Assembly: GCA_012271015.1 (NCBI GenBank)
Contig: JAAXHD010000427.1
Span: 1-62,221, forward strand
Reading direction: 5' to 3'
Length of the DNA stretch: 62,221 bases
Origin: Candidatus Poribacteria bacterium
GTDB taxonomy: Bacteria > Poribacteria > WGA-4E > WGA-3G
This document shows positions 30,162-50,761 of the stretch, piece by piece; positions within the stretch are counted from its first letter, which is position 1, and each line of letters begins with the position of its first letter. The translations under genes and the position numbers were made by a program. The notes below the pieces were generated by a model. The model saw nothing but the letters and a program-made list of their open reading frames with translations, searched no databases and had not been told where the DNA came from.

Positions 30162-30265
30162 TTTTACCTTGCGGTTCGGTGAGGTGGGTTTGGCAAACGA
30201 AGTGCCTTTCCGTAGATCAGAAGAAACACCCCAGCAAAAACCCCTCCGCTACGCTTACGGGCTGC
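30158..30265 (-). repeat. full-length copy of the leader-repeat element in inverted orientation, overlapping the atpA stop codon
   Basis: The reverse complement aligns by eye with 50631-50743 (ggaggggtttttgctggggtgtttcttctgat[c/a]tacgga...ccacct[c/g]accgaaccgcaagg). Confidence 0.85.
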
Positions 30266-30361
30266 TGTTCGGTCTAAGGCTTTGGAATATTGTAGGTTGG
30301 GTTCAACGGAGTGAAACCCAACAAATGTAGGAGAGAACTTCGATTCCCCATAGTTAAAAAT

Positions 30362-31240: not shown

Positions 31241-31406
31241 GGGTTTTTAAACTATCGGCCTCCGATCTGCCTTCTATTCCATTACGTGCGGGTTTCTGGT
31301 TAAGGCTCAACTGTATTTGAGAGTTTGGTGGAAACACTAAGTCCAGAACTGTAGCCTGCAACAACGGCGCAGGCGGATGAATGTCGATTAACGTTATTCG
31401 CTTAAT

Positions 31407-31442
31407 TTACCTGACCGAACCGCAAGGGAAAATTAAAAAATG
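31407..31442 (+). repeat. leader-repeat terminal copy supplying the start of the DUF1992 gene
   Basis: tttacctgaccgaaccgcaagggaaaattaaaaaATG. Confidence 0.85.
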
Positions 31443-31913
31443 CCTATCGATGTCAACAAACAGATTGAGGAAGCGATGGAACGTGGCGAATTCACAAATT
31501 TGCCCGGCAAAGGTAAACCACTCAAATTAGACACGAATCCTTATCTCACACCCCAGACACGAATGGTGAACCGACTCCTGAAAGAGAACGGATTCGCGCC
31601 ACGGTGGGTTGAATTAGAAAAAGAAATCAAGGAAAAAAAAGCACAACTTGAAAGAATCCTCATAAACCTAAAAGCCCGACGAGAACGGTTGTCGTCTATC
31701 GTCCAACAATATCCACATCGGCGTGAGGTCATCAGTCAGACTTTTGAACAGGAACGGGCTCGCGCTATGGCACAATACAGTGAAAAACTCGAAAACTTGA
31801 ATCGGAAAATTCAACGCGTGAATCTCCTCATGCCAACCCGAAATCGGCAATACGCGTTAATCAATCAGGCACAGGCACTCGCCCACTTCCAGGAGGCGTG
31901 TCCAAGTCTCTGA
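31440..31913 (+). CDS. DUF1992 (DnaJC28-like) domain protein inserted between atpG and atpD
   Basis: GEFTNLPGKGKPLKLDTNPY...RLLKENGFAPRWVELEKEI matches the DnaJC28 conserved domain pattern from memory. Confidence 0.75.
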   Translation: MPIDVNKQIEEAMERGEFTNLPGKGKPLKLDTNPYLTPQTRMVNRLLKENGFAPRWVELEKEIKEKKAQLERILINLKARRERLSSIVQQYPHRREVISQTFEQERARAMAQYSEKLENLNRKIQRVNLLMPTRNRQYALINQAQALAHFQEACPSL

Positions 31914-32000
31914 CTATTCATAGAATGGTGCAGTATTTATCTCTGGTGCGAAACAGAAATGCCAGGAAATTTGAGTGTAACTAAAGGTCAACGACTCTGA

Positions 32001-33428
<1,428 letters not shown>

Positions 33429-34244: not shown

Positions 34245-35069
34245 TCACACCGTCAGTGTAACCTCATCCTGCTTCACAATTTCCTTGATATGTCCATATC
34301 CCGTAGATTCTACCAATTCCAACGTCTCTGGAGATAACCGATTCAGAATAGGTTCCGGAAAGTTATGTTTACCGGTGTATTGGGGGAAATACCGCAAGAC
34401 GAGAAACCGTCGATCCCGATCCTTCGGTTTCCAACGCAGTACACCGTGCGTCAGTAACTCCGAAATAATTACGATGTCGCCCGCCTTTGGTGTAATATTG
34501 ATGAAAACGGGATCGTCAAGTGGATCGATGCCATCCTCTTCGTCAAGTGTCAGTAGCTGCTCTGGTCGCTTAAATTCGCTCTTATGCGAACCCGGAATTA
34601 CGATAAGTCCACCATCTCCCGGATAGACATCCGTAAAATACGGGAAACAGACGAAGTTATCACAGTAGATACGTCCGTTATCAATTTCATAGCGAGTGCT
34701 ATACCATCCGTAATCGTCACGAGCGCAGTGTAATCCACCCGGATTCACTGTCGCCCGCTCTCCCGCTTCCCACAAATCGTGCCTGTCGTGTTTCAGAGAT
34801 CCTCTACCGAATCGTGGCTGATTGTCTGTTAGTTCTTTGATAATCGGCCATATCGCTTTGTGCACCGTTAAACGTTCAAGCGATTTATCAAAGGCGAATC
34901 CGTGCTGGTGAAGTCCCTGTATCTCAAAGCCTGGAGGCAGTTCATCGGAAGGTGTCATGATATATCTATCAACTGCCTCAGCCGCCTCTGCTAACGCATC
35001 GCCGGTGATAACATTTTCCAAGTGAAGGTATCCGGTTACATCAAATAGATAGCGTTGTTTCGGTGTCAT
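34245..35069 (-). CDS. phytanoyl-CoA dioxygenase (PhyH) family protein
   Basis: QRYLFDVTGYLHLENV N-terminus and the PGSHK motif. ATG 35069 follows the leader repeat. The track N-terminus (MKWKADLRNVKTTKPPNRTARKIRK) is a translation of the repeat. Confidence 0.8.
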   Translation of the reverse strand: MTPKQRYLFDVTGYLHLENVITGDALAEAAEAVDRYIMTPSDELPPGFEIQGLHQHGFAFDKSLERLTVHKAIWPIIKELTDNQPRFGRGSLKHDRHDLWEAGERATVNPGGLHCARDDYGWYSTRYEIDNGRIYCDNFVCFPYFTDVYPGDGGLIVIPGSHKSEFKRPEQLLTLDEEDGIDPLDDPVFINITPKAGDIVIISELLTHGVLRWKPKDRDRRFLVLRYFPQYTGKHNFPEPILNRLSPETLELVESTGYGHIKEIVKQDEVTLTV

Positions 35070-35132
35070 TTTTCTAATTTTCCTTGCGGTTCGGTTAGGT
35101 GGTTTGGTGGTTTTCACGTTCCGTAGATCCGC
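35070..35132 (-). repeat. leader-repeat copy supplying SD/start context of the PhyH gene
   Basis: The minus strand reads ggatctacggaacgtgaaaaccaccaaaccacctaaccgaaccgcaaggaaaattagaaaaATG. Confidence 0.85.
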
Positions 35133-35200
35133 TTTCCACTTCATTCCGAGCTACGCGCTATTTTAACTCAAAGGAGCGCGAACCGAGCGCGCTCCTATAA

Positions 35201-35252
35201 GCGACCGCTGAAAGGATTTTTTTGTAAAAAATCCGCTCTGACCGCTGACAGC
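35201..35252. repeat. heptamer-array element (GACCGCT units around an A/T palindrome)
   Basis: gcgaccgctgaaaggatttttttgtaaaaaatccgctctgaccgctgacagc. Its reverse complement matches the core of 37205-37260. Confidence 0.8.
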
Positions 35253-35255
35253 TAT

Positions 35256-36143
35256 TCATAGTGCCATGTCGAACTTCGTGCCGGTTACGTTGCCTTTGAC
35301 GTAAGCCTCACGGAAGAGCGTCTGGCGTTTCGGTGGCATTTCGTCAAGTTGTGCCTGTGGTGGCTTTGAAAGACTCCACCGTTTGTCTACCGAGTTATAA
35401 GCGTTGAAAACAGCGACTCGGTCGGTGTCAGGATTTTGCCACGGCTGTCCGCTATGCGTGATTGCCTCTGTGAAGATGATGACAGATCCAGCTGGACAGG
35501 AATAGGTATCCCAGAACTCCCAATCTTGTGTATGGGCACCTTCTGGAGCCGTATAAGCCGCCTTGTGGCTTCCTGTAATGAACATCGTGCCGCCATCACC
35601 CTTCTCCACGGGGTTAAGTTCCCAGACAACACGCGTCAAACCGCTGTAAGCTTGACCGGGAAGGCATGAATACTGATGACAGTCTCCCGGCATACGTAAC
35701 ATACCATTGCCGTTATGGGCATGGAATTTGAAAGGCATTTCGTCCGTTGTGGAGCGCAGTGCCAAAAAGCTCATCTCCATGCGGAATCCGTAACAGGTAT
35801 CCGATGCGAGATAGGACGACGCGAGAAATTCGTTTCCGAATGCCACGACGACAGGATGGTCTGTCAATGTCTCCAAAGGACCCCCGTAGGTTGAGCGATG
35901 GTGTTGGGGAATCGTTTCGGGGTCGTGCTTTAATCGGTAACAGAAATCGCGCATCTTCTTGATCTCTGACTCCGTCAGGACCCCTGGAAACAAAAGCCAA
36001 CCGTTCTTATCAAACAGATATTTCTGTTCCTGTGTTAGAGGAACAACCGATTTGCCATCAGCATTTGTTTGCGTGAGATCCTCAGGTGCTGTTCCCAACG
36101 GACTTCCTAAGTCTTTGTTAAATTTACCTAACTGTTCCACCAC
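35256..36143 (-). CDS. phytanoyl-CoA dioxygenase (PhyH) family protein
   Basis: QKYLFDKNGWLLFPGVL and ITGSHKA. GTG start preceded by GGGAGG. Confidence 0.8.
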   Translation of the reverse strand: MVEQLGKFNKDLGSPLGTAPEDLTQTNADGKSVVPLTQEQKYLFDKNGWLLFPGVLTESEIKKMRDFCYRLKHDPETIPQHHRSTYGGPLETLTDHPVVVAFGNEFLASSYLASDTCYGFRMEMSFLALRSTTDEMPFKFHAHNGNGMLRMPGDCHQYSCLPGQAYSGLTRVVWELNPVEKGDGGTMFITGSHKAAYTAPEGAHTQDWEFWDTYSCPAGSVIIFTEAITHSGQPWQNPDTDRVAVFNAYNSVDKRWSLSKPPQAQLDEMPPKRQTLFREAYVKGNVTGTKFDMAL

Positions 36144-36197: not shown

Positions 36198-37181
36198 CTA
36201 ATGAATCTTTGCCCCTGTGAAATAGTCTGGGTTTGCTCCCATTTTTTCTAAAAGCGGTGCGGTTACTGTGTCAAGACTCTCAATGACATCAGCGGACGGC
36301 GTGTATTCAGCAACGTGCAGGTTTTGGGTCAGTTCATTTATGTTTCGGGTACCAACGAGCATACAGGTGATACCGGGGCGTGCCATCGCCCAAGCAATAG
36401 CCAGTCGGCTCATCGGGATCTGTTCGGCTTCCGCGATGTGTCGAATAGCCTCTAAGGTCTCAAACATTTCTTCTTCGGCACCTGCCTCGCCGTGCGAAGC
36501 CTGCGCCCGGTCCTCTCGAAAATGGCGAAATCGAGAATGCACCGGTGGTATCTCCTCCGCGCTTTTGTACTGCCCCGTCAAAATTCCCTGTAGCAGGGGC
36601 ATATACCCCAAAATACCGACGTTATGCTCTCGGCACAGCGGAAGCAATTCCGGTTCTATTGCCCGCGACAAAAGATTATAGCAAAGTTGATTCACAGCAA
36701 TTGTCGCACCCGTGTTGAGAGCCGCTGTGAGTTGCTCCACTCCGAAGTTGCTTACACCGATGGCACGGATGAGCCCATCCTCTTGCAAGCGTGTTAATTC
36801 AGCCATGCTTTCTTCGATGGCAATATCGTCGTCGGGCCAATGAATCATATAGATGTCAACATGATCTGTTTGCAACCGACTGAGACTCGCTTCGCAGTGT
36901 TCCCGTATCGTAGCAGGATCGGGTCTGCTTACCTTTGTGCCGATGACTGCTTCGTGCCTTCTACCGTTCAGTGCGACGGCGAGTGCCTCCTCGCTTCGTC
37001 CTTCGTTATATCCTTCCGCTGTATCGAAAAAATTGATGCCAGCGTCCAATGCGGCGTTGGCAACAGTGGTAACGTCTGATTGTGCCTGCGGTCCCCAGTA
37101 GTCGCCACCACCGTATGACCAGCATCCAATCCCCATCGTTGAGATTTCAATTCCAGATTTTCCACACGTCCGCATCTCCAT
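36198..37181 (-). CDS. aldo/keto reductase
   Basis: GIGCWSYGG...INFFDTAEGYNEGRSEE...IGVSNF pattern. Confidence 0.9.
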   Translation of the reverse strand: MEMRTCGKSGIEISTMGIGCWSYGGGDYWGPQAQSDVTTVANAALDAGINFFDTAEGYNEGRSEEALAVALNGRRHEAVIGTKVSRPDPATIREHCEASLSRLQTDHVDIYMIHWPDDDIAIEESMAELTRLQEDGLIRAIGVSNFGVEQLTAALNTGATIAVNQLCYNLLSRAIEPELLPLCREHNVGILGYMPLLQGILTGQYKSAEEIPPVHSRFRHFREDRAQASHGEAGAEEEMFETLEAIRHIAEAEQIPMSRLAIAWAMARPGITCMLVGTRNINELTQNLHVAEYTPSADVIESLDTVTAPLLEKMGANPDYFTGAKIH

Positions 37182-37204
37182 TTTTCAGCCTCCATGATGT
37201 AGGG

Positions 37205-37330
37205 CGATCAGCAGTCAGGTCGGATTTTTCCAAAAAATCCTTTCAGCAGTCAGCGGTCAGTGCTTGGAAGGAAGGACTTCCAGTCTTTCCCTCTTTGCTG
37301 ATGGCTGACTGCTATTCCGCTGATGGCTAA
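37205..37330. repeat. heptamer-array hairpin element
   Basis: Left arm cagcagtcagcggtcag versus right arm gctgatggctgactgctattccgctgatggc. It shares cctctttgctgatggctga with 51297-51316. Confidence 0.8.
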
Positions 37331-37339
37331 TATTACGGC

Positions 37340-38176
37340 CTATGCCAATTCCGCGCAGAGTTCCGTAACCAGCTGTGCGTTCTGACCGATCTGATCGCCA
37401 AATTGTTGATACATACCGAGCAAAAGTGGGTCAATCGGCTTAGTGTTTTCTATCGCGAATTTCACCTCTTCCCGAATCTGATCTGGATTTCCGATGGTTC
37501 TGCCTGCTGCAAGGACCTTGAAGATGAGGCACGGCTTATCTGTGCGCTGTATTGCTTTACACATTTCATCGCGATCCTCGCGCGCGTAAATTTCGCCCAG
37601 AGCCGCGTAGCCGAATTTCTCCCTAAATTTTTCGGCACCGCCGTGAAGATTGTAAAGTCCAGTCATGTAATAGTCTATATCCCAATCCTCGTCTTCAGCG
37701 ATATGCAGGAGTCTCGGATCATGGACGGATAAGCCAACGAGAGTTCCGGTATCACGGACCCGTTTGAGAATGTCTTGCAGGTGATCGAGTCTGTTTTCGC
37801 GTAAGCACCTGTGACCAACGCCACCACCGTGTGGTGCCATACCGAACGGGTCGTGCTTTGCCGCTTCAAAAACAGCGTCCGGTTCCTCATACCAAAGTCC
37901 ACCCGGACTGAGACAGAACCAGTTCAATGTACCACCTTCGTTTCGGTACCGCTGCAAGTCGGAGAGCGAGCGTTCCGTTAGGCTATTCTGCCACGCATTA
38001 AGTCCTGCCTCTTCTGCCCGCTTCAGCGTTGCCACAACTCGTTCGGGGGTATGGTATTCCTGCTGATGCTGCGAGAGGAGTTGGTTGAAGTGGGAATAGC
38101 CATAGATCGGATTATCCCCAATCACCAGTTTACTGATTTGATGTCCACAAAACGAGATTTTCGGTAAGGTTGTCAT
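37340..38176 (-). CDS. conserved hypothetical protein (AKR/TIM-barrel-like N-terminus; function unknown)
   Basis: Long ORF with coding-like composition. No motif recognised with certainty. Confidence 0.6.
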   Translation of the reverse strand: MTTLPKISFCGHQISKLVIGDNPIYGYSHFNQLLSQHQQEYHTPERVVATLKRAEEAGLNAWQNSLTERSLSDLQRYRNEGGTLNWFCLSPGGLWYEEPDAVFEAAKHDPFGMAPHGGGVGHRCLRENRLDHLQDILKRVRDTGTLVGLSVHDPRLLHIAEDEDWDIDYYMTGLYNLHGGAEKFREKFGYAALGEIYAREDRDEMCKAIQRTDKPCLIFKVLAAGRTIGNPDQIREEVKFAIENTKPIDPLLLGMYQQFGDQIGQNAQLVTELCAELA

Positions 38177-38240
38177 TGCTTATCCTCCAATAATGAAGTG
38201 CGTGACGCTAAAACGAACTAACAGTGAACGAACCGAGTGT

Positions 38241-39311
38241 CTAACCGAACAAAAATCCTTCCAGAGCAGTTGCGTCAATCTCACGCACAAGGCGCATCGT
38301 CAAATCCAATGCGGCGTTGTAGTCATCAATGTTAATTATTGAAACATGGCTATGGATATAGCGCGACGGTACACCGAGCACGACGGACGGCACACCTCTG
38401 CCGGATTGATGAATGGCACCACCATCCGTTCCACCGGACTGACGCACTCCAAGTTGGTACGGTATCTCATGTTTCTTTGCCGTCTCAATCGCAAAATCTG
38501 CCAACTTCGGATTGACAATCATTGAAGAATCGATTATCCGAATTTGTACACCGCCGCCAAGTTTCCCTTGTGTCGCACCGACGCTTAATCCTGGGGTATC
38601 ATCAGCAGGCGGTCCCTCAAGCACAATTGCGAGATCGGGTTCCACACTTGCGGCTACCGTCCTCGCCCCTCGTAATCCTACTTCTTCTTGCACACTTCCT
38701 GCCCCAATAACAGTATTCGGATGTTCATCAAGTCTCAAGAGTGCCTCAATTACAATCGCAACACCGACACGATTATCGAACGCTTTGGCGGAGAACAGTT
38801 TATCATTTTTCAACGGCATGAAAGGTCCGTAGGGGGCAATTGGGCATCCCGGTAACACCCCAAATTCCTCAGCCGCCTGTTCTTCGCTCTCCGCACCTAT
38901 GTCGATAAAAAGGTCTTTCATGTCTAAGACCTTATCGCGCGATCCTGAGAGCAGATGCGGCGGTGTAGAGCCGACCACTCCAGGCACTTTACCCAACTTC
39001 GTTGTGATCGTGACACGTTGTGCTAAGAGAGTGTGTGCCCACCATCCACCGAGGGGTAGAAACTTAACGAACCCGTTATCCGTGACGTTTTGCACAACAA
39101 AACCGATCTCGTCTAAATGTGAATCCAGCAAAATTCGGGGCTGTTCAGCATTTCCAGCGCGCGTGCAGAAGATACTCCCTAATCTATCTGTTCCAATTGG
39201 ACCAACACCAGTAACAGCATCACGAAAAATCTCGCGGACTTCTGTTTCGTAACCGGGAATTCCATCTGCTTGTGTCAATGATTTGAGCAGTTCAATTGAT
39301 GTTTCGCTCAT
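38241..39311 (-). CDS. M42 family metallo-aminopeptidase (FrvX/CelM-like)
   Basis: LTQADGIPGYE...HLDEIGF...AFDNRVG...SVQEEVGLRGA pattern. Confidence 0.9.
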   Translation of the reverse strand: MSETSIELLKSLTQADGIPGYETEVREIFRDAVTGVGPIGTDRLGSIFCTRAGNAEQPRILLDSHLDEIGFVVQNVTDNGFVKFLPLGGWWAHTLLAQRVTITTKLGKVPGVVGSTPPHLLSGSRDKVLDMKDLFIDIGAESEEQAAEEFGVLPGCPIAPYGPFMPLKNDKLFSAKAFDNRVGVAIVIEALLRLDEHPNTVIGAGSVQEEVGLRGARTVAASVEPDLAIVLEGPPADDTPGLSVGATQGKLGGGVQIRIIDSSMIVNPKLADFAIETAKKHEIPYQLGVRQSGGTDGGAIHQSGRGVPSVVLGVPSRYIHSHVSIINIDDYNAALDLTMRLVREIDATALEGFLFG

Positions 39312-39503
39312 CTATGCATTCCTTTGAAGATTATGCTATTATTTTCGAGCATTATAGCACGCCTCCGATTTTGTGCCAACTTTTAAGTGGTTGGGTCCGA
39401 GGATATGAGATTGGCGTGCGGTTCTGGTTTATGTTATAATTTTCCAAACGACGTATTTAAAGCACTAAATTAAAAACACAAACTTCTAAATAGGACTTTA
39501 ATT

Positions 39504-40541
39504 ATGAAAAACTACATGCTCATTCTCATACTACTACTTGCCACCACCGCCTGTGCAAGTGCCGAAGATTCTGAAGATTATAGCAACGACGAAATCCGGA
39601 CCCTATTGCCCTTCGATGCGATCCCTGCTATCACCGATCCGCAATTCGTTTCTGCCGGTGCCGCGAAATTAGACGCAGATGCCCCCGTCATCGGCGTGAC
39701 CTTTAACGGCGAAAGCCATGCCTATTCGCTTTATCTGTTGAATGGACATGAGATCGTCAACGATGTTGTGGGCGGAATGAATATCGCTACCACGTGGTGA
39801 CCGCTCTGCAATACGGCTATCGTGTATAGTCGGGATCTTGACGGTAAGACGTATACATTTGGTGTTAGCGGTAAATTGTGGCGGGATGCGTTGTTGATGT
39901 ATGACCATCAGACACGTTCCCTCTGGTCGCATATCACTGGCGAGGCGATACAGGGTCCGCTCACCGGTAAGCAATTGAAACCCCTCGCCTCCATGCCACA
40001 GATCGCATGGAAAACGTGGCAGTTAAACTATCCAGAGACCGAGGTATTGTCTGTGCCTACCAGAGGTGGTATGCGCGAGAGCATAAACCAAGATGCTTAT
40101 GCAGACTACCATGCCAGTCAGCGTGCTGGTGTCAGCGGGATGAAATATACCGATAATAGACTGCCGAATAAATCCCTTGTGATCGGTGTTCAAGCACCAG
40201 CGAAAGGTGGCAATACACAATTTCGCGCATATCCACTGATACTCTTTACGAAAACCGCTATCATCAACGATACACTTGATGGAGTGCCGCTGCTCATTTT
40301 TCACGATAAAAGGTCGTTCGCAACGGCAGTCTTCACGCGGAACGTGGCAGGGAAAGTCCGAACCTTTAGCCAGAAAGACAGACACTTTGCAGAAGACGAT
40401 ACCGGAACACGCTGGAATCTCATTACAGGTGAGGCAGGATCGGGTAAGGATGGAGGCGCGCGTTTAGAGCGGCTGCCTGCTATCAATATCTATTGGTTCG
40501 CATGGGCGCGCTACCATCCTGAAACCTCTATCTATCGGTAA
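39504..40541 (+). CDS. DUF3179 family protein interrupted by in-frame TGA (39798-39800) at the first Cys of the conserved CPLC motif: selenocysteine candidate or pseudogene
   Basis: Track ORFs 39504-39800 and 39822-40541 share one frame. The read-through gives ...HEIVNDVVGGMNIATTW-[TGA]-PLCNTAIVYSRDLDGKTYTFGVSGKLWRDALLMYDHQTRSLWSH, collinear with DUF3179. A hairpin lies at 39814-39832. Confidence 0.6.
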
Positions 40542-40577
40542 CTATAGTAGATTTTACAATTGACGATGCCTTCAATC

Positions 40578-40601
40578 GGCGCGCTTACAAAGCGCGCCTA
40601 C
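40578..40601 (-). repeat. GTAG-headed REP-like palindrome
   Basis: The minus strand reads GTAG-GCGCGCT-ttgta-AGCGCGCC. Confidence 0.7.
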
Positions 40602-40655
40602 CGGTGGATGTCTACATGTTTTATATTTTGCCCTAACTTGGCAACTACAAAGACT

Positions 40656-41417
40656 TTAATTGTCCAGTTCGACGATTTCACCTGTCATATTGCGGTGCAT
40701 CGTCGGACGAATGACTAATTCCGGGATATTGCTCCGTTGTGGCAGCGTTGCGATTAGCAGAATCGCCGCTGAAGTCTCATCGACATCTACCATTGTCTCA
40801 CGGGCGGCGGCATCCGGAGGAACCGGACGTTTGTCCAGAATCGGCGTTGCTACCTCACCGGGGACAACGACACTTGCTCGGATACCGGTGTTCCGTAAAT
40901 CGGCGTTGAGGAATTCGGTGAAATTGATAACCGCCGCCTTCGCTGCGCCGTAGGCAAACCCGCTAAACGGACCGGGCGTGACCGCCGCAAGCGACGAGAT
41001 ATTAATAATCGTCCCCGATTTCGCTTCCAGCATCGCTGGTACAACCGCTTTCGTACAGAAAAATGTGCCCATTAGATTTGAATCGATAACCGAGCGCATC
41101 TCTTCAGGGGGGGTGTTGAGGAGTCGTCGATGCTGTGAACTGTGTCCGGCATTGTTCACAAGTACATCAATCCGTCCGAACTTGTCAAGCACATCGGCAA
41201 CCATCTGTTCGACAGCATCGTAGTCAGCCACGTCAAACGCGTAACTCACCGCTGTCCCGCCTGCTGCTTCAACTTCAGCCTTGACGGAGACCAACTTCGA
41301 TTCTGTTCTACCGTTAATGACAACCGTCGCACCCTCTTGTGCCATTGCGAGGGCGGCACCGCGGCCTATACCACTGCCACCCCCCGTAATAATACAAACA
41401 TTTCCTTCTAAACGCAT
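40656..41417 (-). CDS. SDR family oxidoreductase
   Basis: TGGGSGIG cofactor motif, NNAG, and YGAAK catalytic motif. Confidence 0.92.
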   Translation of the reverse strand: MRLEGNVCIITGGGSGIGRGAALAMAQEGATVVINGRTESKLVSVKAEVEAAGGTAVSYAFDVADYDAVEQMVADVLDKFGRIDVLVNNAGHSSQHRRLLNTPPEEMRSVIDSNLMGTFFCTKAVVPAMLEAKSGTIINISSLAAVTPGPFSGFAYGAAKAAVINFTEFLNADLRNTGIRASVVVPGEVATPILDKRPVPPDAAARETMVDVDETSAAILLIATLPQRSNIPELVIRPTMHRNMTGEIVELDN

Positions 41418-42250
41418 TCTTTTCCTCCATTGGGTAAAATAGGTTTAACTGCCGCTTTTACCTCTTTTGATAACGATTCTAATTCATATTGTGCATCCGA
41501 TATTTTATCGCGATGTTCGTCAAGCGGGTATCCACCCTTTCCAGTTTCATTGAAATAAGCACTCAATTGATAGCGTTGAAAGATGTTCATCCGCGGATAA
41601 TCCTCTGTCCAAGGACTCGCATCGTGGAGCAGGTTCGTCGAGAAGATCGCCACATCACCCGCTTCCATCGGTAGCGTAATTGAGGTCGGTGGATCGTGCT
41701 TCACGGGTAGGTTCTCTGGGGTCTGGAACAGAGATTTATGACTACCGGGGACGAGGCAAAAGCCGGTGCCAGAGGGTACATCTACGAGTGCAACCCACGT
41801 CGCAATGTGGCTGCAATAGATGTGTCCCGCGGCGGCTTGGTAATCGTTGTGTGGATTGCGGAACCCGGGTGGGAATTTGAATCCGCTGTCGTCACGATGA
41901 AAGTGTTGAGGGGCATCGTGTTTCGTCATCATCGTAAAATTGCAGTGAAACAGACGCGGAGCATTCATTGTCAACCCCGCCACAACTCGCATAATGTCAG
42001 GATTCATCGCGAGGTCTTCAAAGAGACGATGTCCGTACTGGATGTGTCCAATGTGTGTTTTGCAAGGCTCCTGTTGCCCGCGATCGAGCGGTGGTGGAAT
42101 GTCGGCTTCACCAATTGTCAACCAATGCTGAAGTCCCTTTACCATCTCTTCAATTGCGTCTTTTGGGATAACGTTTCTTAAAACGAGGAACCCGTGTAAA
42201 TCGAAATACCACTTCTCCGCTTCCGTCAAAGTGGAATGGATTGTATACAT
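41408..42250 (-). CDS. phytanoyl-CoA dioxygenase (PhyH) family protein
   Basis: EKWYFDLHGFLVLRNVI, HFHRDD and PGSHKS. Its last codons contain the SD and ATG of the SDR gene (10-nt overlap). Confidence 0.8.
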   Translation of the reverse strand: MYTIHSTLTEAEKWYFDLHGFLVLRNVIPKDAIEEMVKGLQHWLTIGEADIPPPLDRGQQEPCKTHIGHIQYGHRLFEDLAMNPDIMRVVAGLTMNAPRLFHCNFTMMTKHDAPQHFHRDDSGFKFPPGFRNPHNDYQAAAGHIYCSHIATWVALVDVPSGTGFCLVPGSHKSLFQTPENLPVKHDPPTSITLPMEAGDVAIFSTNLLHDASPWTEDYPRMNIFQRYQLSAYFNETGKGGYPLDEHRDKISDAQYELESLSKEVKAAVKPILPNGGKECV

Positions 42251-42326
42251 TAATTCTTCTCCGCTATTTCTATGAGTTTTGCGAATACAGATTAGCAGAA
42301 TTCGACAAAATTTTCAAGACTACGGA

Positions 42327-43361
42327 TTAGTGTTCAGGTTGCTTTATCTCTCCCCAGAGGGTCGTCAACTTCCCATGCGGTGAAACAGCTAAGGAGCCTT
42401 CTATCCAGTCGGGCCACTTCTCATCACTCGGCTCACGCGTCAACCGTCTCAGCCCCTGTGTCTCGAGTCCATAACGATAGAGGTTATAATGTGAGATGGA
42501 TTTATCCAGGAACTTGAGTGCGAACAGGATCGCACGGTCCTGCTCCATCCAACACGCCCCTGCGATCAGAAAATGGTTGCCGAGTCGGTCATTAATATCT
42601 GTTATTTTATGCGTCCCACCCCCGATCCGTTGAACGATGAATCGCTTGACATCTCCATCGCGAAACCATTTCGATTCATAGAAGAGGATGCGTTGTCCAT
42701 CGGCAGACCAGCGGGGAAAGTATCTGAACGTGGACGGGTCGTTGGGACCTGGATCCGGGAGGACAGGACGCTGGTGCTGCCCCTCCGCAGACATCACGTA
42801 GATCGTTTTCGGGACTATCCCGGGCTTTCGGATGAACCGCTCAAAAGCGATCTGTCTGCCATCGGGCGACCAGTCGGGGGACGCGGAAGCTGTATCCTCG
42901 TCCTCACCTGTTAATTGTGTGACGGTGTGCGTTGCAAGTTCTATGACGAACACCTCCCATCTTCCGCTTCGGGTACTCGTAAAAACGAGGGAGTGTCCAT
43001 CGGGCGACCAAGATGGATACACATCGATGACGTTGTTATAGGTAAAGCGTTGCGGGTCTGTGCCATCAGCGTTCATGATGAATATCTCCGACGTGGTTTG
43101 TGTTTGCGTCCTGTCCATGTATCTGGTAAAAGCGATCTGTGTGCCATCGGGCGACCAACGAGGATACCGGTGTGTCGCCTGCGTGCTGTGTGTGAGCCTG
43201 CGTCTGCGTGAGCCGTCATCGTTCATGACGCAAATATCACCATCGAGACAAAACACGATCTTTGCATCAACGGAAGTTGTCGCACCTGTGAGCCAGAGCA
43301 GACAGCAAGAAAGGAAAAAACGTATTGTTTTTGAAAGATGGGTTGTTTTTAGGGAGTTCAT
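42327..43361 (-). CDS. secreted PD40/TolB-like beta-propeller protein, copy 1
   Basis: Signal peptide and repeated WSPDG motifs (RWSPDGTQIAF, SWSPDGHSLVF, DWSPDGRQIAF). AAGGAGG sits 6 nt before ATG 43361. Confidence 0.85.
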   Translation of the reverse strand: MNSLKTTHLSKTIRFFLSCCLLWLTGATTSVDAKIVFCLDGDICVMNDDGSRRRRLTHSTQATHRYPRWSPDGTQIAFTRYMDRTQTQTTSEIFIMNADGTDPQRFTYNNVIDVYPSWSPDGHSLVFTSTRSGRWEVFVIELATHTVTQLTGEDEDTASASPDWSPDGRQIAFERFIRKPGIVPKTIYVMSAEGQHQRPVLPDPGPNDPSTFRYFPRWSADGQRILFYESKWFRDGDVKRFIVQRIGGGTHKITDINDRLGNHFLIAGACWMEQDRAILFALKFLDKSISHYNLYRYGLETQGLRRLTREPSDEKWPDWIEGSLAVSPHGKLTTLWGEIKQPEH

Positions 43362-43465
43362 TGTGTGCCTCCTTCTGCACAAGGGATGCTTTGAGAGACC
43401 CGCGGCGATGCGATGACTACCCTCGCCGCGGGTGTTATCAGAGAGTCGCTCCTGGGGACCGACCC

Positions 43466-43939
43466 CTAAAGTTCAAAATTAGTGGAGCATGACGCAGTGG
43501 GCCACGCGACCTTCTCCTTCGTCGCAAGGTCTCTTACCTCCAAGCCTGTCCACGCATCAATCCAGCCGGGTCCTTCTTCTTTATTTCTCAGAAGGAACGA
43601 GAAGTTGTGGTGGGCAGACCCAAAACTATTCCCCGGTACCTCTTTCTCTTTTGTTTCGGGGAGTGGTGTAATAGACCCGCCGTTCCAATGCACTTCCACC
43701 GTGAACGTCCCATACAATTTGACCTTCCCGATGCCATAGTTGTCAACGGCGACCGAATGACTGCTGTGAGCAGTTTCAGTGAGGGTATCAAACCAGGTGC
43801 AGACGTAGGTGGATCCATACACATTTCCAGCAAATTCAGTGCTCGATCTAAAATCCTGATCAAGCGCGTAGAGGTCCGTTAGAAGTAAACAGGTTGTTGC
43901 AAAAAGAAGCGTCAGTGTGAAAACAACAAAGCATTTCAT
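43466..43939 (-). CDS. small secreted protein of unknown function, cassette partner 1
   Basis: Signal peptide MKCFVVFTLTLLFATTCLLL and AAGGAG SD. Weak similarity to 45204-45764 (AHSSHSVAVDNYG vs AYSTHSAYIGNYAG). Confidence 0.65.
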   Translation of the reverse strand: MKCFVVFTLTLLFATTCLLLTDLYALDQDFRSSTEFAGNVYGSTYVCTWFDTLTETAHSSHSVAVDNYGIGKVKLYGTFTVEVHWNGGSITPLPETKEKEVPGNSFGSAHHNFSFLLRNKEEGPGWIDAWTGLEVRDLATKEKVAWPTASCSTNFEL

Positions 43940-44117
43940 TTTAGTATCTCCTTTTGACTCGCTCTAAGGCGTCTTCATTTACGCAGGCGGTGTGATAATA
44001 AATCACGGCTCTGCTGCTACTAAATCCCATCTATGTAAGGTATCAATAATATCAACGAGAGGCTCCGTGGTGCCTGTGAGGTTCCAGCCCAGAATCGAGG
44101 GGCATCGACAGATCGAT

Positions 44118-45146
44118 TCAATTTGAGTGCTTCTCGCCGACTTTCAACTTACTCCACTGCGTGCTTTTTTTTCCGTTTGCGGATGCGTCAAGCGTGCCTG
44201 CTATCCATCGAGGTAATAAGTCTTCTGCGGGGTGTGTGGTGAGTTGCGTTAGTGTGCTGCTGATGAAGTTATAGCGATAGATGTCGTAATTGCCGCGTTC
44301 TTTGGTTATTAATCCTGTGGCATCCGCGGATAAAAGTATCTCTTTATTGTTTATCCAACAAGATGCCCCAGGGCGAAATCCTTTTGGAAGTACCACCCGT
44401 TCTGTTCTTTTTGCGGCAAGGTGATAAATAAAAATGTTGCTTTCTCTGATAACAAGGTCTGTATCAGCTCCGTCTTTATTTACTATAATATCAAATCTAT
44501 CCTCAACAAACATGAGGCGTTTGCTATCCGGGGCCCAGCGCGGGTACATACGAATGACAAGGAAATCAGGGTTAGCATTCGGGGGGAAGATCGGTTTCTC
44601 ACCACGTCCATCTAGCGCGACAATGTGAATGTTCTTTTCAAAGCCGGGTGTCTTTTCAAAAGCGATGAAACGGCCATCTGCAGAAATATCTGATTCGGTT
44701 ATCTTCTCAACGCCCTGGAGGGGGCGTGTCACGCCGGTCTCTATGTCGATAAAGAAAAGCCGATAGGTACGCTTATCAAAGTCCCATGTTGTGATCGCCA
44801 ATTCCTGTCCATCTGGTGTGAAGAAATTGAGCCACTGAAATGAAAGTGCTTCATCTTCATTTGTTAGAACCTGCTCATCGCTACCATCCGCTTTCATGAG
44901 AATGACCTCTGATATTTTTTGTCTATCTTGCATGCTGCTGCGCAGAAATGTGAGTGTTTGACCGTCTGGTGCCCATAAAGGAACATAGTCACCAGCCGGA
45001 TTGTTCGTTATTCTGCGAAGGTGGCTGCCATTATCATTCATCGTATAAATTTCGGAGTTGCCATCGCGTTTAGAATAAAACACGATTTTGGTGTTCGCTA
45101 CAGTGGCAAACATCAACAAAAGACATGAAAGAAAAATAGTTTTCAT
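44118..45146 (-). CDS. secreted PD40/TolB-like beta-propeller protein, copy 2
   Basis: Signal peptide and PD40 repeats (LWAPDGQTLTF, FFTPDGQELAI). AAGGAG SD. Confidence 0.85.
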   Translation of the reverse strand: MKTIFLSCLLLMFATVANTKIVFYSKRDGNSEIYTMNDNGSHLRRITNNPAGDYVPLWAPDGQTLTFLRSSMQDRQKISEVILMKADGSDEQVLTNEDEALSFQWLNFFTPDGQELAITTWDFDKRTYRLFFIDIETGVTRPLQGVEKITESDISADGRFIAFEKTPGFEKNIHIVALDGRGEKPIFPPNANPDFLVIRMYPRWAPDSKRLMFVEDRFDIIVNKDGADTDLVIRESNIFIYHLAAKRTERVVLPKGFRPGASCWINNKEILLSADATGLITKERGNYDIYRYNFISSTLTQLTTHPAEDLLPRWIAGTLDASANGKKSTQWSKLKVGEKHSN

Positions 45147-45203
45147 GAGAATCTCCTTAGGGAGAGCGAGAACATAAATGCCCTCGCTCAGAACTACACC
45201 GAA

Positions 45204-45764
45204 TTATTGGACAGTAAACGGTATATCACCTTCCGCGTGCCACCGTGCTTTTAGCCCGGCATCGTCTTGATCTCTCGCCTGAATGTTGGTATATGCCGTG
45301 AAAAGGTGGGGCCCCGGTTGAAGCCCGCTAGTAGAAACGCTCTGTTGATAATGATATTCGCTCCAATAATAATCTGCCCATCCATCATAGTAAGGCTGTA
45401 GTTTTCTTGAACGTATCCTGGGATTCCTATTGGTCCGGTTGAGATCCTCACCATTGGGGCCTCGAACTGAGGTGAGATAAACGAGATCAAACAAAATGTC
45501 TTGATCTCCAAAGTCACCACCAGCGTAGTTGCCAATGTAGGCCGAGTGTGTGCTATATGCCCGATTGTTGGCAGACCACATATTCTCCACAAAAACCTGA
45601 CCGTAGGTATTCGGCAATTTCTCGAACAAAGGGTCCTCCAAATAATCTGTGTCGCCATAACTTATATCAGAGGCAAGTGCAGCTTCGGTGTGCATTGAGA
45701 CGGAACTTAATCCTACACAGAGCATAGCGATAAAAAGTATCGCGTGAAAGAAGGAATGGGTCAT
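45204..45764 (-). CDS. small secreted protein of unknown function, cassette partner 2
   Basis: Signal peptide MTHSFFHAILFIAMLCVGLSSVSMHTEA. AAGGAG sits 6 nt upstream of ATG 45764; the track start 45809 has no SD. Confidence 0.65.
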   Translation of the reverse strand: MTHSFFHAILFIAMLCVGLSSVSMHTEAALASDISYGDTDYLEDPLFEKLPNTYGQVFVENMWSANNRAYSTHSAYIGNYAGGDFGDQDILFDLVYLTSVRGPNGEDLNRTNRNPRIRSRKLQPYYDGWADYYWSEYHYQQSVSTSGLQPGPHLFTAYTNIQARDQDDAGLKARWHAEGDIPFTVQ

Positions 45765-45915
45765 AATCATCTCCTTTGTTTGCGAAGGGCATGGATGTGT
45801 GTAATACATTTTCGCTTTTGTGTGAGTAACGGTGATAGTTTTAGTTTCCGCGCGAAAATCGCCGCAGAAACATTTTTATATGCTGAGCATTGCTCAATAG
45901 CGTCATAATAATAGG

Positions 45916-45933
45916 TAGCAATTATCGTGCCAA
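45916..45933 (-). promoter_or_regulatory. sigma-54 (-24/-12) promoter, consensus match
   Basis: The minus strand reads TTGGCACGATAATTGCTA, i.e. TGGCAC-N5-TTGCT. It lies ~150 nt upstream of the start at 45764. Confidence 0.75.
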
Positions 45934-45975
45934 TTTGAAAACCTATACAGTTACAGGGATCAGATCATTTACCAA

Positions 45976-46030
45976 CCCTCCAAAATTTGGAAATTTTCTA
46001 AATTTTGGAGGGTTACCCTCTAAATTTTGG
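45976..46030. promoter_or_regulatory. palindromic upstream sites (candidate enhancer/UAS for the sigma-54 activator)
   Basis: CCCTCCAAAATTT (45976-45988), 11 nt, AAATTTTGGAGGG (46000-46012), plus a third half-site CCCTCTAAATTTTGG (46016-46030). The sites lie 45-100 bp upstream of the -24 element. Confidence 0.5.
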
Positions 46031-46130
46031 AATCTGCCTCACATTAAACCTTTATACGCGCCCAGGGTGATTTCGTTTTGGGTTTCGATCTTGGTTTTCA
46101 TTTACATAAGTTAAGGTTTTGGCACAAAAT

Positions 46131-46152
46131 CGCGAGCACCGCTCGCGCCTAC
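46131..46152 (-). repeat. GTAG-headed REP-like palindrome
   Basis: The minus strand reads GTAG-G-CGCGAGC-ggt-GCTCGCG. Confidence 0.65.
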
Positions 46153-46224
46153 AGTGGAGAAATAGTCACATATATAAAGGGAATCTTTAAAACGAAATGG
46201 CCCTGTATACGCGCCGTATTCCAC

Positions 46225-46252
46225 TTGACGTATTCTGAGAGTGTGTTAAAAT
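46225..46252 (+). promoter_or_regulatory. sigma-70-type promoter candidate for the activator gene
   Basis: TTGACG, 16 nt, TAAAAT. Confidence 0.35.
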
Positions 46253-46293
46253 AAACAAAATCAGATACTCTAAAATTAGAGCGGAGAAGGACT

Positions 46294-47379
46294 ATGAAAG
46301 GCAGTACGAAAGAAAATATGGTAGATTCAGGGCATCGTGATGCGGAGGCGACTGCCAGGCGCAGTCGCCCGGCTCGGCACGGATTACACGGGGAGTATAC
46401 GGATATCCTCGGCGAAAGCCCGGAGATGATTGAAGTCCTTGAAAAAATAGAAGTGGTTGCGGATACAGATGCGGCGGTGCTGATTCAAGGAGAAACTGGA
46501 ACCGGTAAAGAGTTAATAGCATACGCCTTACACCGAAACAGTTCTCGTGCGGCAGAGGAGTTGGTTGTCGTTAACTGCGCAGCGATACCGGAAAATTTAT
46601 TGGAGAGCGCACTCTTTGGACATGAGAAAGGCGCGTTCACCGGGGCCACGGAGCGACAGATCGGTAAGTTTGAAAGTGCGCACCGGAGCACAATTTTCCT
46701 TGATGAAATCGGGGAGATGCCGCTGTCTCTTCAGCCGAAGTTGCTACGGACGCTTCAGGATCGGAAGATTGAACGCATCGGCGGCACGAAACCGATTCCC
46801 GTAGATTTTCGAGTGGTCGCGGCTACCAACCGGGACCTGCAGCACGCCGTTAGAGATGGCACTTTCCGCGAAGACCTCTATTATCGGTTGAAGGTCGTTT
46901 CGCTCTCACTGCCCCCCTTGCGAGAACGGCGAGAGGATATCCGTCTCTTAACAAACCACTTTCTGCAAAAGCATGCTCAGGACCGAAGCCCCTTACCGAT
47001 AAAGATAGCCTCCAGCACCCTAAACCTTCTCTACACCTACCCCTGGCCCGGAAATATACGTGAATTAGAAAACGCCATTTTTTACGTCTGCCTTTTTGGC
47101 AAAACAGATGCTATCTTGCCGAAGCACCTCCCCAAGGATATTCAAGACTTCAACGGAGAAAGATGGCGTTCAGCGGTAGAAGTTGCTGGCGGACTTTATA
47201 CGCAAGATACAATAGACCTCCCTCTCGGATTAACGTTGAAGGAGGTCGAAAGGGAGTGGATTCTGCAAACGTTGGCATATTTGGACGGAAATCGGACAAA
47301 GACCGCAAAGGCTTTGGGAATGAGCCTAAGTTCTTTGTATAATAAGTTAAACAGTTATGCAGCGGAACCGAAGTTTTAG
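46294..47379 (+). CDS. sigma-54-dependent transcriptional activator lacking an N-terminal sensory/receiver domain (PspF/HrpR-like architecture)
   Basis: The AAA+ core starts ~37 aa from the N-terminus: GETGTGKE (Walker A), GAFTGA loop, IFLDEIGEM (Walker B). C-terminal Fis-type [24 protein letters not shown]. Confidence 0.92.
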
Positions 47380-47421
47380 GCAACGGTACTTCTTGGACCT
47401 CTTCCTATTCTCAAAAAGCAC

Positions 47422-47449
47422 TTGACAAAAATCTCGAAACCCCTATAAT
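47422..47449 (+). promoter_or_regulatory. near-consensus sigma-70 promoter
   Basis: TTGACA (47422-47427), 16 nt, TATAAT (47444-47449). Confidence 0.55.
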
Positions 47450-47489
47450 GGACATCACAATATGGTTGAGTCTTAAGGAGGTCCTCCCA

Positions 47490-48155
47490 GTGTCTTTAAA
47501 ACAACGTATCCATAATAAAGAAGCGATTAACATTGCATCCGGTGTCTCGTTCGGCTGCACCCGCGACGAGATGGAGGCGGTTCTCGGTCAGGGCAACTAC
47601 GATTTGATCAGTACCGACCATCAGCACGGTGCCGCGAATGAAGATAAACTTGTTGAATATTGTGCTATGGCGAGTGAATTCGATGTAGGCGTGCAGCTTC
47701 GCATCAAACACACGCGCAACGCGTATCTCATCGGCAATCTGTTAGATCTCGGTCCCCAGGCGATTGTCGTGCCACAGGTCGAGAGCGTTGAAACGGTGGA
47801 CGAAGCAATCGATTTTTTCTACTATCCTCAGAAGGGAAAACGGAGTTGGGGTCCCAGCAGTGCTTACGGCATAAAACAGGGCTTGGACCGCCTTGAGTAC
47901 GCCGAGTGGTGGAACAATACCGGCATTCTCATCTTACAGATCGAATCTGTGGATGCCGTGATTAACGTCAGCAAATTCGCGAAACCCGGCGTGGATATGG
48001 TAACCTTCGGTGAGAATGACCTGAATTTTAGTATAGAATCGTATCCGAGTTCCCCATTTAAAAATCTTCAGGAGTGCATTGCACACGTGCAAACACAGCT
48101 CGCAGATACCCACGTCAAGGTAGGTGCGGGGCATACACCGTCAGGGCGGTTGTAG
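47490..48155 (+). CDS. HpcH/HpaI-family aldolase
   Basis: DHQHG..., LRIKH..., IVVPQVESVETVDEAI pattern. GTG 47490 is preceded by AAGGAGG (47474-47480). The track ATG 47448 overlaps the -10 box. Confidence 0.8.
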   Translation: MSLKQRIHNKEAINIASGVSFGCTRDEMEAVLGQGNYDLISTDHQHGAANEDKLVEYCAMASEFDVGVQLRIKHTRNAYLIGNLLDLGPQAIVVPQVESVETVDEAIDFFYYPQKGKRSWGPSSAYGIKQGLDRLEYAEWWNNTGILILQIESVDAVINVSKFAKPGVDMVTFGENDLNFSIESYPSSPFKNLQECIAHVQTQLADTHVKVGAGHTPSGRL

Positions 48156-48241
48156 GAGTAAAGTCTAATTCTCCGTGGGAGGGGTTTTTAACCCCGATTG
48201 CATGAACTTTAGGCAATTTAATCCTGAGAAGGAGTGTTATA

Positions 48242-49486
48242 ATGTCAAAACGAATTAAAATCGGGATTATTGGATGCGGTATGGTAGCCGGTTCACATGT
48301 CAATGGGTATCTTGACCATCCACAGCATGCCGAAATCGTTGCTGTTTGCGATACGGTGGAAGCGAATGTAAAGCGCCGACATGCGGAAGCCCTTTCTGGT
48401 GCTGCATCGCGCGCGGAAGCCGCAAAAGCCGACGCAGAAAAGGCAGATACAACGGAAGCACGCGAGCAGTTGGAGGCAGACGCTGCTCTCTGGTCAGAAT
48501 ATAGCGACAACGGTGTCAAAATCTTTAGCGACTACAACGAAATGTTGAGGGACTGTGATTTAGACGCCGTCAGCCTTGCCCTACCACCGTTTGTCCATGA
48601 GCCTGCCACCGTCGCAGCCGCTCAGGCCGGAAAGCACGTCTTCTGCGAAAAACCGATGGCGCGCACCGCAACAGAGGCGAGAAATATGCGGGATGCCTGT
48701 GATGCCGCTGGCGTTAAACTCGCATACCAGAGCGGCGGTACATGCCTTGATCCGACAAGTTTCGCCATTCGGGACTATATCACCTCTGGGAAACTCGGTG
48801 ATGTCTATTACGGCAGACTCACCAGTTACCGGGTCCGTGGCAGGCCGAATGTAGATATGTTCGGCTACGGCAGATGGTTCCTCCATTCGGTTTACAGTGG
48901 AGGCGGCACCATATACGACACAGGGGTCTACCTTATCAACCGCTCCATCTATCTGCTCGGTTCACCACAGCCCGCTACTATCAGTGGTATCGCCTACCGC
49001 GGCATGCTTCCTGAATATACGGGTGAGCCCATCAACGACGTTGAGGAACACGTCTCCGTGTTTGTCCGGTTTACAAATGGGATGTCGTTCACGTATGAAA
49101 ACGGTTGGTCGAGCAATATGGCAGGACAACCACAGGGCATCTTCATTTTCGGATCCAAGGGTTCGTTTAGCAACGACAAACTCTTCCTTGAAAACGGGGA
49201 GTGGGATACCGATGACCAGGGCAATCGCAGACGCTATCAAGGCAATCTCGTCGAAACGCCGTTAGAGTTACCAGATAGGTCCATCCCCGATAAGTTCCGT
49301 GATTTCCTTGATGCGTGTAACAGCGATGCGCAGCCTGTCAGCAATGGGGACATCGGTCTGAAGGTTACGGAGATTATGAGTGGTGCACTCTTGTCAGCGA
49401 AACTCGGTCGTGAAGTCAGCGTAGAAGAACTTTATGAATTGGAAGGACTCCGCGCCGAACCGATACCCGGTTGGCATATCCCATAA
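48242..49486 (+). CDS. Gfo/Idh/MocA family oxidoreductase (with Ala/Glu-rich insertion after the Rossmann beta2-alpha region)
   Basis: KIGIIGCGMVAGSHVNGY, VFCEKPMA. Confidence 0.9.
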   Translation: MSKRIKIGIIGCGMVAGSHVNGYLDHPQHAEIVAVCDTVEANVKRRHAEALSGAASRAEAAKADAEKADTTEAREQLEADAALWSEYSDNGVKIFSDYNEMLRDCDLDAVSLALPPFVHEPATVAAAQAGKHVFCEKPMARTATEARNMRDACDAAGVKLAYQSGGTCLDPTSFAIRDYITSGKLGDVYYGRLTSYRVRGRPNVDMFGYGRWFLHSVYSGGGTIYDTGVYLINRSIYLLGSPQPATISGIAYRGMLPEYTGEPINDVEEHVSVFVRFTNGMSFTYENGWSSNMAGQPQGIFIFGSKGSFSNDKLFLENGEWDTDDQGNRRRYQGNLVETPLELPDRSIPDKFRDFLDACNSDAQPVSNGDIGLKVTEIMSGALLSAKLGREVSVEELYELEGLRAEPIPGWHIP

Positions 49487-49623
49487 GAGCGCATTCAGCG
49501 AATTTAATGTTGACAAATTACCCTTCAATCGGGTATGCTTTAAAAGGTGTCGTTGGGTGTGCAGAAGCATGTGTAAGTTGAAATATTATCTTGAAAGAAC
49601 GTGAATGAAACGGAGGATTAGAT

Positions 49624-50743: not shown

Positions 50744-50761
50744 TAAAAAAGGAGAAGAAAT

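Follow-up and report, generated by a model that had tools for sequence, protein, structure and literature searches.

A putative DUF3179 selenoprotein in Candidatus Poribacteria, with an in-frame UGA and a candidate downstream SECIS hairpin

The DUF3179 gene and the features around its in-frame TGA

We analysed a 62,221-nucleotide stretch of DNA from Candidatus Poribacteria bacterium (contig JAAXHD010000427.1 of assembly GCA_012271015.1; "the window" below means this whole stretch). This work concerns the gene at 39504-40541 of its forward strand, which encodes a DUF3179 protein across an in-frame TGA. The gene starts at ATG 39504 and terminates at TAA 40539-40541, and the lone in-frame TGA (39798-39800) is codon 99, in the context ...GMNIATTW-[TGA]-PLCNTAIVYSRD.... 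Naive gene calling gives two open reading frames (ORFs) here, 39504-39800 (98 aa) and 39822-40541 (239 aa, GTG start). A preliminary description of the locus had proposed that reading through the TGA joins these two same-frame ORFs into one complete protein, and this was borne out: when Cys is put in at the TGA, the translation of 345 aa aligns with the full length of PF11376 (DUF3179), its residues 38-341 covering profile positions 2-292 of 292, at 256.6 bits compared to a Pfam gathering cut-off of 27 (E = 4.3e-76), which places it in the DUF3179 family. In the resulting motif, W-U-P-L-C, the presumed selenocysteine (Sec) takes the place of the first residue in the conserved C-P-L-C/T motif, the mark of the DUF3179 Sec subfamily.

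The closest protein relatives (72-94% identity) are almost only C-terminal fragments of 214-240 aa, together with one full-length protein, P0001, which reads ...ATTW-C-PLCKTAIVYSR... with a TGT codon for Cys. A putative signal peptide was recognised by eye from a positive n-region, a hydrophobic core and an AxA site, with the junction lying between MKNYMLILILLLATTACASA and ED; in an AlphaFold2 (AF2) model of P0001, the corresponding stretch (residues 1-22) is disordered (predicted local distance difference test, pLDDT, <50). The features are listed below; SECIS stands for selenocysteine insertion sequence, bSECIS for its bacterial form and MFE for minimum free energy.

39504..40541, forward strand: coding sequence of the putative DUF3179 selenoprotein, 345 codons plus TAA, UGA read-through at codon 99 (translation, Pfam, orthologs)
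39504..39563, forward strand: predicted Sec-pathway signal peptide, MKNYMLILILLLATTACASA, with A-S-A before E21 (sequence inspection only)
39798..39800, forward strand: UGA codon, residue 99, position 1 of the U-P-L-C motif at 39798-39809 (TGA in orthologs, Sec/Cys pairs)
39814..39832, forward strand: candidate bSECIS upper stem, 39814-39820 paired with 39826-39832, apical loop CGUGU at 39821-39825 (invariance, covariation)
39822..39824, forward strand: GTG (Val107) within the loop of the candidate SECIS, a false start codon for gene callers (ORF 39822..40541)
39800..39845, forward strand: possible lower stem, 39800-39803 with 39842-39845 and 39805-39806 with 39840-39841, 7+7-nt internal loop (MFE fold, weak)

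The hairpin was found as originally described, CGGCUAU-CGUGU-AUAGUCG, with a 7-bp stem, one pair of which is G-U, and a GU-containing loop of 5 nt that carries G at position 2. Pair probabilities were 0.81-0.92 in the window sequence (fold of UGA..+60), and the fold of UGA..+50 had an MFE of -13.2 kcal/mol, comprising the hairpin plus a weak lower stem. Published bSECIS criteria (PMC13188914) ask for a loop of 3-9 nt with G, mostly followed by G or U, in position 1 or 2, an upper stem of 4-16 bp, a UGA-to-loop distance of 16-37 nt and an MFE <= -7.5 kcal/mol. The window element satisfies all of them (loop CGUGU, 7 bp, 20 nt, -13.2 kcal/mol), so that the spacing, which had been judged compatible with bacterial SECIS elements, is indeed so. 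The MFE was <= -7.5 kcal/mol in 56/58 orthologs.

Comparative evidence on the TGA codon and the hairpin

Scanning a single genome for each GTDB species yielded 57 orthologous loci, all of them in Candidatus Poribacteria metagenome-assembled genomes (MAGs), many of which are closed chromosomes of 4-6.7 Mb. A 97%-identical ortholog lies at 3,557,643-3,558,677 of the 5.5-Mb chromosome OZ244804.1. The homologous codon was TGA in 57/57 orthologs (pairwise protein identity 58-99%). It was the sole internal stop in each, the true terminator always being TAA or TAG, with about 90-150 open codons upstream and 240-325 downstream, and no additional stop or frameshift was found in any ortholog. The alignment of homologs proposed at the outset thus showed TGA at all 57 loci and no scattered stops. 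Divergence was 0.44 at codon position 3 vs. 0.13 at positions 1+2 upstream of the TGA, and 0.47 vs. 0.15 downstream. The equal pattern on the two sides indicates that both parts are translated and are under the same purifying selection.

The segment 39815-39829 was invariant in 58/58 sequences, including four consecutive synonymous sites. The codon alignment of the orthologs contained 191 columns with a conserved amino acid and a degenerate codon, at a mean synonymous entropy of 1.07 bits; only 4/191 used a single codon, and these were consecutive, GCU-AUC-GUG-UAU (Ala-Ile-Val-Tyr, Sec+6..+9), coinciding with the upper stem and loop. Third-position divergence over the SECIS codons was 0.17, compared to 0.44-0.47 elsewhere.

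More distant homologs were collected by an exhaustive search with P0001 over 1.84 billion cluster representatives, which gave 9,046 DUF3179 clusters. About 14 of the best 150 clusters (39-46% identity) were fragments of approximately 235 aa starting at the same Val codon, and their contigs showed the same W-TGA-P-L-C split. A metagenome scan added 80 more diverse loci; together with the window and contigs L060-L063, on which N- and C-terminal DUF3179 fragments are called separately, the set comprised 46 TGA-type and 37 Cys-type sequences. The homologous codon was TGA in 45 distant metagenomic homologs and encoded Cys, as [Y/F]-C-P-L-C, in 37. The proposal that the TGA stands at the first Cys of the CPLC motif therefore holds, since it aligns with Cys in P0001 and in the 37 Cys-type homologs.

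Every TGA-type gene had a hairpin at +16..+34, with differing stem sequences (CGGCUAU/AUAGYCG, CGGGCAU/AUGCCCG, CGGGAAU/AUUCCCG, CUGGAAU/AUUCCAG, CGGUCGU/ACGACCG, CGGCGGU/ACCGCCG, and 8-bp stems with GUC or GUU loops). In an alignment of 49 diverse TGA-type genes, compared with 500 shuffles and with slid controls, 97.7% of cells were paired (23-54% in the slid controls) and four of the seven pairs showed compensatory changes. Double-sided changes occurred in 46 cells vs. 10.6 ± 2.5 in the shuffles, and the covariation score was 0.429 vs. 0.135; neither observed value was reached by any of the 500 shuffles. All seven pairs were formed by 42/46 TGA-type genes, while more than five were formed by 0/37 Cys-type genes. 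The local MFE was -10.0 kcal/mol in the TGA type and -4.8 kcal/mol in the Cys type (Mann-Whitney p = 6e-10), and the loop G was present at the equivalent position in 46/46 TGA-type genes. The structure downstream of the TGA is accordingly kept and covarying in the TGA-bearing homologs, and none of the 37 Cys-type homologs forms it. The family consensus for the candidate SECIS, 13 nt downstream of the UGA, reads C-G-G-N-N-N-U / loop (C)GUG(U) / A-N-N-N-C-C-G.

P0001, the positional ortholog of the window protein, is encoded at locus L144, which is syntenic with window positions 36198-53652 (aldo-keto reductase, M42 peptidase, DUF3179, SDR, PhyH, GFO/IDH/MocA and Mo-hydroxylase subunits). At L144:6301-6352 the full hairpin (7/7 pairs, core identical to that of the window) is kept beside the TGT, which suggests that Sec reverted to Cys recently and left the SECIS behind as a fossil. 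In a neighbour-joining tree of the C-terminal region, computed without the motif, one clade of 47 leaves took in all 45 TGA-type sequences; its two Cys-type leaves were L087 and L144. From this tree, the Sec form of DUF3179 looks like a single old invention that has rarely been lost.

The residue before Sec/Cys differed between the two types: it was Trp in 44/46 TGA-type sequences (Trp98 in the window, codon 39795-39797) and Tyr or Phe, never Trp, in the 37 Cys-type sequences. This correlation may come from phylogeny; it could also mark a requirement specific to Sec, either of the active site or of the UGG-UGA codon context.

Duplication or fusion of the domain is frequent. Locus L086 carries two tandem TGA-type copies, UPLA and UPLC (1122-1135 and 1927-1940), P0121 (1587 aa) contains six DUF3179 stretches, and other proteins fuse DUF3179 to NHL, WD40, ArsP permease or Fn3/VWA domains. 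Furthermore, 15/57 Poribacteria orthologs (among them L030, L031, L034, L035 and L037-L040) have a collagen-like (Gly-X-Y)n insert of about 29-54 residues, e.g. APGRDGADGQDGADGG..., and P0083 matches Pfam Collagen (PF01391). The insertion site is a surface position corresponding to window ~40212, after residue ~236; the window gene itself has no insert.

Probable selenocysteine at the UGA and the alternatives

Taken together, the Sec/Cys pairs, the TGA in all orthologs, the covarying and TGA-specific hairpin and its fit to the bSECIS model sustain the original proposal of Sec in a UxxC motif. The UGA at 39798-39800 very probably encodes selenocysteine, with the hairpin at 39814-39832, 14 nt downstream, as its SECIS and an exported DUF3179 selenoprotein of a sponge symbiont as the product. 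By analogy with E. coli fdhF, the hairpin would recruit SelB·GTP·Sec-tRNA(Sec) to a ribosome paused at the UGA, and Sec would be inserted there in place of termination.

Several observations weigh against this interpretation. In the window sequence, the 66-nt segment 39795-39860 was not more stable than its shuffles (z = 0.41) and its MFE structure lacked the hairpin. Under synonymous-codon resampling, 5.7% of resamples were equally stable (p about 0.06), which is marginal. The fold of a single sequence is context-dependent, and comparative analysis was used instead. Within Poribacteria the helix was 99% paired but invariant, so that covariation was zero there and was seen only in the distant homologs. 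The lower stem (39800..39845) showed no covariation; it was 89.9% paired in the Poribacteria orthologs, with the pair 39803/39842 often broken, and is weakly supported. The covariance-model scan suggested by the preliminary description returned no Rfam SECIS family at gathering thresholds in the whole window, nor any SECIS model at E <= 10 in 39700-39950, where the only match was a spurious snoRNA (E = 6.3). Bacterial SECIS elements are heterogeneous, which makes the missing Rfam match weak as counter-evidence. The window element belongs to no curated Rfam SECIS family, yet it fits the generic bSECIS model. Finally, the organism is uncultured, and the searchable literature yielded no experimental selenium incorporation for any DUF3179 protein. 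Genes for the Sec machinery (selA, selB, selD, tRNA-Sec) were absent from the 62 kb of the window and from ~1.2 Mb flanking the orthologs, as searched with ARAGORN (window and 57 loci) and by tblastn with E. coli SelA, SelB and SelD (window and flanks).

The negative result on the Sec machinery is uninformative, as the sampling was confined to the surroundings of a single gene. In the literature, SelA (COG1921 = 2) and SelB (COG3276 = 1) are recorded in Ca. Poribacteria WGA-3G (PMC5649159, Table S4), SelA/SelB are enriched in sponge-symbiont bins (PMC5649159), and Sec-containing group 4 [NiFeSe] hydrogenases occur in Poribacteria (PMC13582414). These reports are at the level of the phylum and make a Sec machinery in the window's own genome plausible.

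The comparative data bear on what else the TGA might be. The preliminary description had raised the counter-argument of a decaying gene, given that TGY to TGA is one substitution and that other window genes were believed to be disrupted by nonsense mutations. No such genes were found: long same-frame ORF pairs were only adjacent intact genes, coding density was about 84%, and housekeeping genes (ATP synthase) were intact. The same TGA recurs in 57 independent species-level assemblies and in 45 unrelated metagenome contigs, with no extra stop or frameshift in them. Conservation of the TGA as the sole internal stop, together with purifying selection on both sides of it, excludes a pseudogene or a base-calling error, and we consider a nonsense mutation, or a sequencing or assembly fault, to have virtually no probability. 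Genome-wide reassignment of UGA to Trp or Gly (genetic codes 4 and 25) would agree with TGA being the rarest stop in the window, where it closes 7/52 ORFs. However, these seven ORFs are well formed; the alpha/beta-hydrolase gene at 54469-55185, for example, ends in TGA (55183-55185) and the next gene starts three codons on. The recoded codon aligns with Cys rather than with Trp or Gly, and the screen of 1.2 Mb of Poribacteria flanks revealed no second protein-like family with a conserved in-frame TGA, only off-frame shadow ORFs; it supplied no further selenoprotein that would corroborate Sec use. TGA is therefore still an ordinary terminator in this genome, recoding at 39798-39800 is local, and reassignment, already of negligible likelihood, is excluded.

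A split gene would consist of a 98-aa N-terminal fragment and a 239-aa protein initiated at GTG 39822, the hairpin serving translational coupling or re-initiation. Every database entry of the clade is called in this way, and the GTG is invariant. Nevertheless, codon-wise conservation (P-L-C-K/N-T-A-I) extends through the 21 nt between UGA and GTG, with varying third positions (CCG/CCA/CCC, CTC/TTG/CTT, TGC/TGT), indicating translation in frame, and a break here would fall within a beta-hairpin of the domain, exactly at the most conserved Cys of the family. Moreover, Cys-type homologs are single polypeptides without the hairpin, and in some TGA-type homologs neither GTG nor ATG stands in this register; in L063, for instance, the called start precedes it by one codon, at the first Val (GUG) in V-V-Y, 18 nt from the UGA vs. 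21. A split gene is, on these grounds, highly improbable. It is also unlikely, if somewhat less remote, that SECIS/SelB-dependent recoding inserts Cys, by a tRNA(ReC)-type allo-tRNA or by mischarging with Cys/Ser at low selenium. The TGA and SECIS evidence is blind to the amino acid delivered, a further point against the Sec assignment, and Cys is functionally tolerated at the site, as in P0001. tRNA(ReC)-like tRNAs with UCA or GCA anticodons occur in a fraction of Sec-utilising genomes (PMC13582414), and work cited there reports that they mediate SECIS-dependent UGA recoding. On the other hand, ARAGORN, run on the window and the 57 ortholog loci, detected no tRNA at all, and a plain TGT/TGC codon would be a cheaper way to a Cys product. 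That TGA has nonetheless been kept in 57/57 species and throughout the 45-member clade, with only two reversions, argues for selection on Sec itself.

Protein function, genomic context and relation to known systems

The AF2 model, computed with P0001 and 55 diverse homologs, had a pLDDT of 90.9 and a predicted template modelling score (pTM) of 0.87. It is mostly beta, with two similar lobes, and the C/U-P-L-C motif lies on a turn between strands 94-101 and 106-111. Motif position 4 was variable in both types (UxxC 41, UxxA 3 and UxxT 2 among TGA types; CxxC 32, CxxT 4 and CxxV 1 among Cys types); such variation is usual in redox motifs whose resolving Cys can be dispensed with. AhpC-TSA/Redoxin domains are fused N-terminally to DUF3179 in P0125 and P0164, and Redoxin/AhpC-TSA proteins, among the few recurrent neighbours, account for 4/55 ORFs flanking TGA-type genes. 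The dispensable position-4 residue, the Redoxin fusions and the Redoxin neighbours all point to thiol/selenol redox chemistry. Our best guess from sequence and model is a periplasmic or extracytoplasmic thiol/selenol redox protein. After signal-peptide cleavage and export, the mature protein would have ~325 aa; Sec99 would act as the attacking nucleophile and Cys102 as a dispensable resolving residue, forming a selenenylsulfide, and the recycling partner may be a TlpA/AhpC-type thioredoxin-fold protein.

This functional model of DUF3179 is weak, and some results run counter to it. Foldseek gave no significant match in PDB (best E = 0.028, none at 0.001), and querying the PDB sequences with a profile of the family gave none either. 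The protein does not qualify as a thioredoxin-fold oxidoreductase, having no Pfam match to the thioredoxin family and a mostly beta model. The recurrent local Foldseek matches were only to Rieske/NirD-like beta domains, which could mean metal binding, and no operon clue came from the genes around it in the window (M42 peptidase and SDR, encoded on the opposite strand, PhyH, aldo-keto reductase, PD40). The C/U-P-x-C turn of DUF3179 recalls the Rieske C-P-x-H knuckle, and the alternative to a redox protein is a Sec/Cys metal site on such a Rieske-like knuckle. A bolder possibility, which we regard as doubtful, is a new structural class: an exported, all-beta, Rieske-like two-lobed selenoenzyme with W-U-P-L-C as a selenenylsulfide redox centre or a Sec-ligated metal site, whose Sec form would have arisen once, spread over soil, marine and sponge-symbiont bacteria and become universal in Poribacteria. 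On this view, the universal retention in Poribacteria would point to a Sec-dependent extracytoplasmic function important for the sponge-symbiont lifestyle.

The remaining gene content of the window is typical of Poribacteria and healthy-looking. Encoded there are three PhyH-family dioxygenase paralogs, two PD40/TolB-like beta-propeller proteins, the F-type ATP synthase alpha and beta subunits, a Mo-hydroxylase (CoxL/xanthine dehydrogenase-like) large subunit, a sigma-54 activator and a 633-aa Rieske-domain protein (regions 34245-36143, 41408-42250, 42327-45146, 28647-33428, 51355-53652 and 59856-61757). ORFs of 270-480 aa without a Pfam match lie at 37340-38176, 23192-24646 and 55186-56376.

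Public gene calls of the clade are truncated, starting at the GTG of the SECIS loop or at downstream ATGs and giving proteins of 214-240 aa (P0002-P0120); an NCBI entry under the title 'DUF3179 domain-containing protein [Candidatus Poribacteria bacterium]' is one of these. As all clade entries seen were split at the UGA and DUF3179 lacks an NCBIfam model, annotation pipelines mis-call the gene systematically, and a covariance model together with a protein model for DUF3179 would mend thousands of entries. The scientific gain is modest: clean comparative evidence that a catalogue-listed family behaves as a selenoprotein, with the Sec form fixed across the candidate phylum Poribacteria (57/57 species genomes), and, as by-products, a supported family SECIS consensus and the demonstration that public annotations split DUF3179 genes. 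As a UxxC selenoprotein of predicted export and non-thioredoxin fold, universal in sponge symbionts, it is a reasonable target for biochemistry.

Among known structures, Rieske/NirD-like domains (PDB 3gce, 5cxm, 4aiv, 2jo6) were matched with a Foldseek probability of 0.9-1.0 and a target-normalised template modelling (TM) score of 0.45-0.62, at E >= 0.028 and over about 90-115 residues, about a quarter of the DUF3179 protein; the CxH...CxxH ligand set of Rieske proteins is absent from the window protein. Thioredoxin-fold UxxC/CxxU families (thiol:disulfide interchange, DsbA-like, Prx/AhpC-like) dominate prokaryotic selenoproteomes (PMC1976440). DUF3179 has in common with them a redox-type U-x-x-C, a dispensable second Cys, Sec/Cys pairs and the association with AhpC-TSA/Redoxin, but differs in its all-beta, two-lobed AF2 model.

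With the E. coli fdhF SECIS/SelB system the window element shares a stem-loop in the coding region right after the UGA, and by this comparison it would bind SelB; however, it has no sequence similarity to the fdhF element and no bulged U is evident in its upper stem. It shares the small G-U loop, the 16-37 nt spacing and the 4-16 bp stem of the bSECISearch consensus (Zhang & Gladyshev 2005, via PMC13188914 Fig. 2).

The nearest known system is DUF3179 itself. The impression in the preliminary description that it is not a described selenoprotein family was wrong: it is listed as such, with the motif UxxC/T, in PMC9312934 (Biomolecules 2022) and PMC13188914 (Appl Environ Microbiol 2026). Both attribute the entry to Zhang & Gladyshev 2007 (NAR 35:4952, PMC1976440), who reported six new families from the Olavius algarvensis symbiont metagenome under names other than DUF3179; judging from the order of the review tables, it is presumably their OS_HP1 or OS_HP2. 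The published entries differ from the present description in being table rows with example accessions, and the searchable literature gave no Poribacteria clade, family SECIS consensus or function for DUF3179 beyond these rows. The window gene agrees with the listed family in its Pfam domain, in the Sec position (first residue of UxxC), in having Cys homologs and in a bacterial SECIS predicted directly downstream, and it lies inside the single TGA-type clade of the sampled sequences. Since DUF3179 is already listed, the gene is no new discovery but one that is routinely mis-annotated; it is a new, Poribacteria member of an already described selenoprotein family.

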